A stretch of DNA of 51,510 nt from Escherichia phage BananaBelafonte. The DNA is taken from the sequence record PP925845.1, one strand, 5' to 3'. The translations under genes were made by a program, and so were the position numbers. Under the pieces are notes generated by a model that was not told where the DNA came from, did no database searches, and saw only the letters and a program-made list of their open reading frames with translations. This document shows positions 8,748-10,393 of this stretch, piece after piece (within the stretch, counting starts at the first letter, position 1; each line of letters begins with the position of its first letter).

Positions 8748-10322
8748 ATGAGCATGTTAATTTGGGAAGAACTGACAGCGGCGCAGAAACGCGCCGTTAA
8801 AGAAATGAGTGAATACTCATTCGAGAAGATGATCCGAATCTGGTTTCAGTTACTCCAGGGGCAAAAGTTCCTGGGTAACTGGCATTTTAGCTACCTGTGC
8901 AGCGAAGTAGAGAAGATCATAAACGGCGAATCGCAAAACGTGATTTTTAACATCACGCCAGGCAGCGGTAAAACGGAAATCTTTTCGATCCATATGTCGC
9001 CCTATGCGTCATTGAAAAGCAAGAAGGTGCGAAACCTTAACCTTTCGTTTAGTGATGGGCTGGTGCAGCAAAACAGCAACCGGATCAAAGAAATTATCGG
9101 CTCCCCCGAATGGCAAGAGCTTTGGCCTGGCAAGCTGGCAAAGGCAAGCGCCAAAGATTTGATCGTGCAGGACGGCAACGGCAAGGTTAAATTGCAGGTC
9201 AATTCCCGCTCCATTGGTGGACAGGTAACGGGTTTGCGTGGCGGCTACATGGATGAAGGTTTTACCGGAATGCTGGTACTTGACGATCCAGATAAGCCGG
9301 ACGATATGTTTTCGAAGGTGCGCCGTGATGCGATGCACACGCGACTGAAAAACACCGTGCGCTCACGTCGAATGAAAGACACCACGCCGATCGTGATGGT
9401 TCAGCAGCGGCTACACGTCAACGATTCGACCTGGTTTATGACGCAAGGCGGCATGGGCGGCATTGAGTTTAAAGTTGTATCAATTCCGGCGCTCGTCACA
9501 GCGGATTATCGGGAAACGCTTCCTGATTGGTTAAAGCCAGAATTTGATCGGGATGTGCTTTCGTCCGAGCCTGTAATGATTGACGGCGTAGCGCATTACT
9601 CGTTTTGGCCTGCAAAGGAGAGCGCAAAAGATTTGTTGGCGTTGCGCGAGGCTGACCCATACACCTTTGCATCACAGTACCAGCAGCAGCCAATCGCCCT
9701 GGGCGGCAACGTGTTCAAAACGTCATGGTTCCAGTTTTACGGCGACGGCGAGAAATGCACACTACCGAAACCGGATCGCTTTGAATATACTTTCATTACG
9801 GCAGATACGGCGCAGAAAACCGGAGAGTTGAACGACTACACCGTGTTTTGTTATTGGGGCATGTTCAAAGGGCGCGTTTACTTTATCGACGGCGTGCGCG
9901 GCAAATGGGAAGCGCCGGAGCTTGAAACAAACTTTGTTGCTTTCGTCAATCAGTGCTGGAAGCGTAACAAAGAATGCGGCTCGTTGCGCCGTATTCACGT
10001 TGAGGATAAGGCGAGCGGTACGGGCTTGATTCAGGGCGCAAAGAAAAAGTTGCCTATTGATATAAATCCCGTTCAGCGCAGCACGGACAAAGTAACCCGC
10101 GCAATGGATGCCGCGCCAGTAATGCGAGCCGGACGTGTGGCACTACCAGAAAGTCACCCGATGTTAGCGGAGCTACTCGCAGAGGTTGCGGCGTTTACGT
10201 TCGACGACTCACACCCAAACGACGATATCGTTGATAACATCGTTGACGCTGTGAACGTGGAAATGAACCTTGCAGACGATCCGGTTGCACGAATGAAAAA
10301 ACTTGCTGGATTGAAGAAATAG
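8748..10322 (+). CDS. terL: terminase large subunit
   Basis: 524 aa; Walker A-like motif PGSGKTE in N-terminal ATPase region, Asp-rich C-terminal nuclease-like region; position before portal. Confidence 0.85.
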   Translation: MSMLIWEELTAAQKRAVKEMSEYSFEKMIRIWFQLLQGQKFLGNWHFSYLCSEVEKIINGESQNVIFNITPGSGKTEIFSIHMSPYASLKSKKVRNLNLSFSDGLVQQNSNRIKEIIGSPEWQELWPGKLAKASAKDLIVQDGNGKVKLQVNSRSIGGQVTGLRGGYMDEGFTGMLVLDDPDKPDDMFSKVRRDAMHTRLKNTVRSRRMKDTTPIVMVQQRLHVNDSTWFMTQGGMGGIEFKVVSIPALVTADYRETLPDWLKPEFDRDVLSSEPVMIDGVAHYSFWPAKESAKDLLALREADPYTFASQYQQQPIALGGNVFKTSWFQFYGDGEKCTLPKPDRFEYTFITADTAQKTGELNDYTVFCYWGMFKGRVYFIDGVRGKWEAPELETNFVAFVNQCWKRNKECGSLRRIHVEDKASGTGLIQGAKKKLPIDINPVQRSTDKVTRAMDAAPVMRAGRVALPESHPMLAELLAEVAAFTFDDSHPNDDIVDNIVDAVNVEMNLADDPVARMKKLAGLKK

Positions 10323-10375
10323 CACTTATTGCTAAAAAGCTGATATAATCAGGGCTGGACATTCCAGCCCTTTTT
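10320..10375 (+). promoter_or_regulatory. conserved element plus extended -10-like TGATATAAT plus terminator-like hairpin upstream of portal gene
   Basis: TAGCACTTATTGCTAAAA at 10320-10337 (includes terL stop), TGATATAAT at 10341-10349, hairpin AGGGCTGG..CCAGCCC followed by T-run. Confidence 0.5.
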
Positions 10376-10393
10376 TATTATGGAGATCAGGTT

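Follow-up and report, generated by a model that had tools for sequence, protein, structure and literature searches.

The closest described system to the junction analysed here is the promoter-early stem-loop (PeSL) cassette of T4-type phages, a composite of promoter and terminator known from RB49/phi1, T4/PST and KVP40/nt-1 (PMC2839356, PMC4122927), for which lacZ reporters showed that the promoter-overlapping stem-loop terminates upstream transcription while the promoter fires (PMC2839356). Promoter-coupled terminators have in addition been reported as widespread in bacteria (Fletcher et al., 2026 preprint, bioRxiv 10.64898/2026.08.19.745784); in these, the −10 directly follows the T-tract, the stem overlaps the −35, and RNA starts some 10 bp beyond the point of termination. 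Here, we analysed the junction between the terminase large subunit gene terL and the portal gene of Escherichia phage BananaBelafonte (PP925845.1), whose record of 51,510 nucleotides, called the window throughout, is the genome of a T1-like siphophage of the Drexlerviridae. A first-pass annotation had placed a conserved element, an extended −10 and a GC hairpin with T-run in front of the portal ribosome-binding site, and each of these features was found where it had been reported (Table 1). It had further proposed that they act as an attenuator or set the expression ratio of terL to portal; the anatomy and the ratio-setting idea hold up, while the attenuator reading does not. With moderate confidence, we read the interval as a compact stop-and-restart junction built from an overlapping terminator and promoter, and as a variant of known promoter–terminator cassettes rather than a new kind.

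The likeness to PeSL cassettes extends from the parts, a repeated intergenic cassette in which a host-type promoter and an overlapping GC-rich stem-loop precede the ribosome-binding site of the next gene, to the functions, the PeSL stem-loop stopping upstream RNA and the promoter restarting it, as we propose by analogy for the portal junction. PeSL cassettes furthermore occupy junctions prone to insertion and deletion, and at the portal junction HNH endonuclease genes are found inserted beside the module in relatives. The repeated intergenic motif, of which the window has 19 copies, joins a conserved upstream element to a −10, an inverted repeat and a leader; T1 matches the palindrome 21 times, and those T1 copies that were displayed keep this spacing. 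The likeness is one of functional analogy only, as the phages belong to another family and no sequence relationship was seen. The geometry differs as well: the PeSL stem mostly overlaps the −10 or occupies the stretch separating it from the −35. Most early copies of the repeated element have their stem-loop in such a position, but the portal and capsid stems lie just past the −10, over the predicted start site, and carry a true T-run. Moreover, the repeated element lacks a sigma-70 −35 and keeps a strict 22-nt spacing to the −10, and its portal copy resides in a conserved structural module and not in a hyperplastic region.

Like promoter-coupled terminators, the junction packs a terminator and a promoter of the same strand into a short stretch between two tandem genes of related function, parts of the DNA belong to both signals, and polymerase sitting on the promoter would cover the terminator; predicted start and predicted termination lie on the same strand within 35 bp of each other. 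The order described for bacteria is itself present in the window (8151/8189, 22403/22432 and 24536/24567), but the portal and capsid junctions reverse it, with the −10 ahead of the stem, and the predicted portal start lies ~20 nt upstream of the termination point, inside the stem. Attenuators of the trp type and riboswitch platforms likewise place a promoter shortly before an intrinsic terminator in front of the regulated gene. In an attenuator, however, RNA from the promoter itself has to include the entire hairpin, and an alternative structure or sensor is required in addition, whereas the portal RNA is predicted to begin within the stem, and neither an alternative structure nor a leader peptide or Rfam family was found.

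The terL–portal region is 97% identical to that of Klebsiella phage vB_KM5a1-KLB26 (KLB26), which carries the same gene annotation, and 82–86% identical to Tempevirinae coliphages such as PaulSarasin/Bas09. Its 71-nt intergenic stretch reads TAG-CACTTATTGCTAAAAAGC-TGATATAAT-C-AGGGCTGGA-CAT-TCCAGCCCT-TTTTT-ATTAT-GGAG-ATCAGGTT-ATG. The promoter-like part belongs to the extended −10 class, with A2 and T6 in the hexamer and TGn directly upstream, and the hairpin corresponds to an intrinsic terminator in stem size, loop size and directly adjoining U-tract. Central to our reading is the distance between the two. The hexamer ends 1 nt ahead of the stem and 2 nt ahead of its G:C core, the 7th nucleotide past it, the usual position of a start, is 10356, and purines follow at 10357–10358. 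With so little room between −10 and stem, transcription is predicted to begin within the 5' arm, and RNA born at this promoter could therefore not form the terminator: it would retain at most 3–5 nt of the 9-nt arm and at most GGA/UCC of the stem, and folding of RNAs starting at 10356–10358 returned no hairpin. In every clade examined, the predicted start falls on arm position 3–7 of arm cores of 5–8 nt. From the predicted start (~10356) to the predicted termination (~10377–10380), the distance is ~20–25 nt.

These signals also stand out from the base composition of the window. TGNTATAAT occurs five times, always on the + strand, compared to a shuffle mean of 0.93 and with none of 100 shuffles reaching five, and the 81-nt segment has a folding energy of −24.3 kcal/mol (z = −3.15), equalled by one of 200 shuffles. 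Strict hairpin-plus-T-run sites number 17, against 2.55 ± 1.7 in 40 dinucleotide shuffles; a scan of the window with a loose terminator consensus gave no enrichment (17 against 14.9 expected), with the portal hairpin among the best sites listed.

To place the junction in its family, we gathered 155 loci, which represent 82 unique junctions, in IMG/VR and GenBank; they span Tempevirinae, Tunavirinae (including T1), Rogunavirinae, Braunvirinae, Webervirus and further clades. In the 29 unique sequences that are Tempevirinae-like, three blocks have a high mean pairwise identity, namely the −10 hexamer (0.94), the T-run (0.91) and the ribosome-binding site (0.95), while the 4 nt preceding the −10 (0.44), the hairpin loop (0.47) and the spacer between Shine–Dalgarno sequence and ATG (0.47) come close to the third codon positions of terL and portal (0.48–0.53), which argues for selection on exactly the three conserved blocks. 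Over the whole family, a hexamer with A2 and T6 lies 0–4 nt ahead of the hairpin G:C core in 16 of 17 clade representatives, where local 16-nt shuffling yields such a hexamer in 28% of trials (0.28 per sequence), and a match of at least 5/6 is seen in 14 of 17 compared to a shuffle null of 0.085; the representatives share ancestry, so that these shuffle probabilities overstate significance. The hexamer occurs as TATAAT, TACAAT, TAAAAT, TAAACT, TATCAT, TATACT and CATAAT, with A2 and T6 present without exception in the 17 clade sequences. Fixed A2 and T6 with free middle positions match the way information is known to be spread over a sigma-70 −10 and are unlike the pattern of a pairing partner.

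The surroundings of the hexamer are less constrained: the stretch from stop codon to hairpin varies in length and content across the family, and at least eight different stem types occur among the clade representatives. The module as a whole is found once per genome and in T1-like contigs only, according to an exact-pattern scan, and it remains adjacent to portal where an HNH endonuclease gene or another open reading frame separates it from terL. Such HNH genes were seen between terL and the portal module at 1919–2428 of locus L011 and about 1930–2436 of L028, as well as in L062, L064 and L154; in L011 the HNH start overlaps the terL stop (ATGA), and in L028 it lies just past it. The inserted HNH gene ends on AAGAAATAG, the same letters that open the repeated element.

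The hairpin covaries. Its 15 different arm versions at the portal junction all pair, with folding energies of −9.8 to −15.5 kcal/mol, and include GGCTGGA/TCCAGCC, GGGCTGTC/GACGGCCC, GCCCCT/AGGGGC, AGCCCC/GGGGCT, GGGCCA/TGGCCC, GGCTAGG/CCTAGCC, GGCTGGG/CCCAGCC and GTGGGCC/GGCCCAC; counted outward from the loop, each stem position shows 2–6 pair types. This alignment was hand-built from the loop, which makes the 100% pairing partly a matter of construction, and independent single-sequence folds gave the hairpin in 18 of 18 sequences. RNAalifold returned no structure on a MAFFT alignment of the 17 clade sequences, because a sequence alignment cannot register arms that differ in sequence. A T-run is present in all clades but Webervirus and the clade of loci L152/L153.

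A second junction supports the proposed geometry. In the leader of the major capsid gene, an unambiguous promoter and a hairpin are arranged in the same way (Table 1), and the capsid promoter carries −35, TGn and −10 family-wide. Throughout Tempevirinae and Tunavirinae, the capsid-leader hairpin lies 1–3 nt past the −10, usually with a T-run; the T1 equivalent is TTGACG-16-TGCTATTAT, which is annotated as promoter in the record of that phage, alongside a terminator. As the capsid protein is the most abundant virion protein and cannot rely on RNA that is terminated 25 nt on, a start inside the stem is sensible at this site. In the Webervirus capsid junction (L212–L242), the terminator GGGGCTTCGGCCCC with T5 comes first, followed by the promoter, and no hairpin comes after. 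The two orders of signals thus interchange in evolution at the capsid junction, as would be expected if both meant to terminate upstream and restart here.

The sequence features and their conservation are observed, as are the covarying hairpin and the constant distance from −10 to stem; on this basis, we propose a model in which a terS–terL transcript, starting at the extended −10 near 8189, would be ended or attenuated by an intrinsic (Rho-independent) terminator consisting of the hairpin at 10351–10371 and T6. A host sigma-70 extended −10 promoter would restart RNA at about 10355–10358, within the 5' arm. The terminator would act on RNA arriving from terL and spare RNA from the junction promoter, which, having lost most of the 5' arm, would escape it and continue into the portal and head genes with its ribosome-binding site free, behind a leader of about 36–39 nt. 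In addition, the terminator would lie entirely beneath promoter-bound RNA polymerase, which might thereby impede transcription coming through from terL. Portal and head expression would then be set by the junction promoter and terminase expression by the upstream promoter, which fits the earlier idea of the element as setter of the terL:portal ratio, the expression effect being part of the model.

Table 1. Features of the terL–portal junction and of comparable sites in the BananaBelafonte window
Feature	Coordinates	Strand	Remarks
terL (terminase large subunit)	8748–10322	+	open reading frame; Pfam Terminase_6C; KLB26 annotation
terL stop codon TAG	10320–10322	+	belongs to the repeated element
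Copy of the repeated element, AATAGCACTTATTGCTAAAAAG	10318–10339	+	form AATAGCAC(N3)TTGCTAAAA
Palindrome TAGCA-N5-TGCTA	10320–10334	+	within the repeated element
Extended −10 TGATATAAT	10341–10349	+	hexamer TATAAT 10344–10349; TGn = TGA 10341–10343
Predicted start window	10355–10358	+	6–9 nt past the −10, in the hairpin 5' arm; deduced from geometry
Terminator hairpin AGGGCTGGA-CAT-TCCAGCCCT	10351–10371	+	9 pairs, 6 of them G:C; 3-nt loop; core about −14 kcal/mol
U-tract	10371–10381	+	T6 10371–10376, then ATTAT
Portal Shine–Dalgarno sequence GGAG	10382–10385	+	8 nt before ATG; ribosome-binding site annotated in KLB26
Portal gene	10394–11668	+	open reading frame; Pfam Phage_portal_3, E = 2.8e-70
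Terminase unit start	8151–8197	+	hairpin 8151–8172 with T-run, then extended −10 TGCTATAAT 8189–8197; usual order
TATAAT with hairpin and T-run	14051–14081	+	TATAAT 14051–14056, directly followed by hairpin and T-run 14057–14081
Major capsid leader	14915–14966	+	promoter TTGCAC-16-TGCTATCAT 14915–14942, 1 nt, hairpin GGGCTGT..ACAGCCC 14944–14966
Palindrome 15-mers, + gene orientation	starts at 1221, 1538, 2641, 3182, 3832, 4828, 6146, 10320, 38461, 40950, 41279, 42434, 42762	+	
Palindrome 15-mers, − gene orientation	starts at 29584, 47725, 48440, 49838, 50327, 51123	−	+ strand coordinates

Several observations weigh against this model, next to the shared ancestry of the clade representatives mentioned above. 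A sigma-70 −35 is absent at 16–18 bp, where AGCACT agrees in 2 of 6 positions, and for lack of a −35 hexamer the site goes unreported in a two-hexamer promoter scan. TGnTATAAT promoters work without a −35, but TGn stands at the −10 in only ~6 of 17 clade representatives, with the TG displaced by 1 nt in five more, and the bare hexamer of many relatives would make only a weak promoter if no activator assisted it. The start position is critical as well, as RNA starting at 10354–10355 could still form a remnant hairpin of 5–6 bp. Webervirus and the L152/L153 clade retain the hairpin without T-run, so termination is not the hairpin's sole conserved role. At the 14051 junction (Table 1), roughly one in two of the relatives examined preserves the pattern of −10 followed by hairpin, which limits the family-wide claim to the portal and capsid junctions; a general rule of a −10 just upstream of every late terminator, which would fit the sites at 10351, 14057, 14944, 15954, 18592 and 19320 in this genome, was not adopted. 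Finally, no mapping of transcript 5' or 3' ends was found for any member of the Drexlerviridae in the literature searched, and for this reason we infer promoter use and start site, together with termination efficiency and the effect on expression, from the sequence.

It is possible, but in our estimate unlikely, that the junction is a terminator only, with hairpin and T-run ending or attenuating the terminase RNA, portal expressed by read-through and the TATAAT silent or very weak. The hexamer would then have been retained for another reason, for example to help the U-tract or to provide spacing after the stop codon. The canonical terminator features, the missing −35, the unconserved TGn and two GenBank records that annotate just a terminator at the junction would all agree with this, as would the weak pairing between the A-rich hexamer and the U-rich 3' flank that several of the folds contain. 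Pairing of this kind would, however, call for compensating changes in the 3' flank, of which the TACAAT variants show none, and it leaves unexplained why A2 and T6 never vary and why, with drifting surroundings, the hexamer keeps to within 4 nt of the stem in all but one of the clades, or why Webervirus keeps CATAAT and hairpin despite the loss of the T-run. Portal and head proteins are presumably also needed far above terminase, for which expression only through a strong terminator would be ill-suited. An AU-rich segment beside a stable stem-loop is, on the other hand, the usual context of RNase E cleavage, and the AU-rich, single-stranded GAUAUAAU adjoins just such a stem-loop. The junction might thus be a processing site at which mRNA decay sets the expression ratio and the hairpin shields the 3' end of the terminase mRNA or the 5' end of the portal mRNA, and preservation of the hairpin in clades without T-run would be in line with that. 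We nevertheless consider RNA processing improbable, for RNase E sites are loosely defined and need neither a strict TAnnnT nor a fixed distance, and the capsid leader has a complete sigma-70 promoter at the same place.

Lower again we place a factor-dependent promoter, in which a protein on the palindrome would drive a −10 located 22 nt past TTGCTA, in the hairpin loop, leaving the TATAAT secondary. The spacing rule kept in 18 of 19 copies speaks for such a factor, as do the nearly invariant portal-site element of Tempevirinae-like phages and the hairpin loop, which in relatives often reads GACAAT or GACTAT. The loop is, however, the least conserved part (0.47) and reads GGACAT in the window, the right half of the element is lost in Hanrivervirus, and T1, Rogunavirinae, Braunvirinae and Webervirus lack the element at this site and still have TATAAT and hairpin. 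Being restricted to Tempevirinae-like phages at portal, the element stands outside the family-wide core. Very improbable is, in our view, the attenuator of the first-pass annotation, in which RNA from the TATAAT promoter would contain the terminator and be terminated or released by a signal. Promoter and terminator do lie within 30 nt of each other, but the complete hairpin would be transcribed only from a start at most 1 nt past the −10, impossible for sigma-70 RNA polymerase. With the start predicted inside the 5' arm in all clades, RNA born at the promoter would lack a complete terminator. Folds of relatives and of the different RNA forms showed no conserved alternative or antiterminator pairing, no leader peptide and no sequestration of the ribosome-binding site, whose accessibility differs little between the forms (unpaired probability 0.65 in read-through RNA and 0.38–0.56 in promoter-born RNA). 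A short open reading frame at ATG 10380 is not conserved in T1, and an Rfam scan of 9800–10900 with E up to 10 gave chance sub-threshold matches only.

Two further candidates at the junction were rejected. Sequestration of the ribosome-binding site in read-through RNA (CUGAU..AUCAG, AUAAU..AUUAU) relies on an outer pairing that is not kept in relatives, and a promoter in the usual order via TATTAT at 10376–10381, a motif that T1 lacks, would begin its RNA past the ribosome-binding site.

The palindrome upstream of the portal −10 belongs to an element with the consensus AAATAGCAC(GAA/TTT)TTG(C/T)TAAAAC, whose 19 gene-oriented copies are distributed over the window (Table 1). In 17 copies, the distance from TTGCTA to a −10-like hexamer downstream is exactly 22 nt, and in one (29584) it is 21 nt. 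The hexamer usually lies within or beside a GC-rich inverted repeat without T-run, after which a conserved leader and a ribosome-binding site follow. No sigma-70 −35 was found in the repeated cassette, TAAAAC filling the −35 position and TTGCTA lying 22 nt off instead of 16–18. In 14 of the 19 copies, the TAG of the element is the stop codon of the upstream gene. The portal copy is atypical, with TATAAT only 9 nt after TTGCTA. A sigma-54 reading of TAGCAC-N-TTGC was dismissed, as the motif offers AG-N8-GC rather than GG-N10-GC and the invariant GG is missing. Literature searches by sequence found no description of the repeated motif.

The palindrome recurs in reversed orientation (TTTAACAAAAAGTGCTAT) within the capsid promoter, where it fills spacer and extended −10 in all subfamilies and is kept even in Webervirus, there as TTTAGCAATTCGTGCTAT; the sites are 14921–14942 and 18655–18672 in the window and, beyond it, loci L163–L242. 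Its location within the capsid promoter resembles that of an operator. Together with the other copies, it suggests one DNA-binding factor at early (about −42) and late (about −18 and −29) promoters. A candidate for binding the palindrome is the protein encoded at 38006–38548 (− strand), which gave sub-threshold matches to Cro/CI-type helix-turn-helix domains and whose T1 counterpart is annotated as transcriptional regulator; its gene is divergent from the helicase gene, the leader of which holds the element copy at 38461.

Tentatively, and with clearly less confidence than the stop-and-restart junction alone, we put forward a joint reading for T1-like phages, in which a terminator-proof promoter is combined with a palindrome acting as switch operator that times early against late expression. 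The former, with the −10 abutting the terminator stem and the start inside the stem, may reset late transcription at the portal and capsid junctions. The palindrome could be the second device, located at ~−42 in ~18 promoters without −35 and with the strict 22-nt spacing, at ~−29 at portal and at ~−18 at capsid.

T1-like phages are common coliphages and Klebsiella phages and depend wholly on host RNA polymerase, and the promoters and terminators listed in Drexlerviridae genome papers are software predictions only. If true, the stop-and-restart junction would provide a rule by which low terminase expression is uncoupled from high head-protein expression within about 70 nt and without antitermination factors, and its reversed geometry, with the start in the terminator stem, would extend the recently proposed coupling of promoters and terminators. 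The junction could serve as a compact part for synthetic operons, joining insulation and restart in about 40 bp. If the terminator alone is active, the finding would be an ordinary one.

Elsewhere in the window, the order of the bacterial promoter-coupled terminators, a terminator hairpin with T-run followed within ~10–20 nt by a TATAAT-type −10, is present at 8151–8197, 18592–18630, 22403–22440 and 24536–24572 and, on the − strand, at 36985–36940. At 28187–28208, between the tail-fibre gene (+ strand) and convergent − strand genes, lies a symmetric hairpin with T-runs on both strands, probably a bidirectional terminator. An antisense promoter-like site at 10404–10377 scored 9/12, had no supporting context and was regarded as a chance match. 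The five-codon open reading frame at 10380–10397 (ATG GAG ATC AGG TTA TGA), encoding MEIRL, runs across the start codon of portal; it is present in close relatives, absent in T1 and frame-shifted in other relatives, and is probably incidental. Within the − strand open reading frame 34361–36997, positions 36090–36530 hold at least six tandem 63-nt repeats, which are GCA/GCG-rich units of 21 codons.

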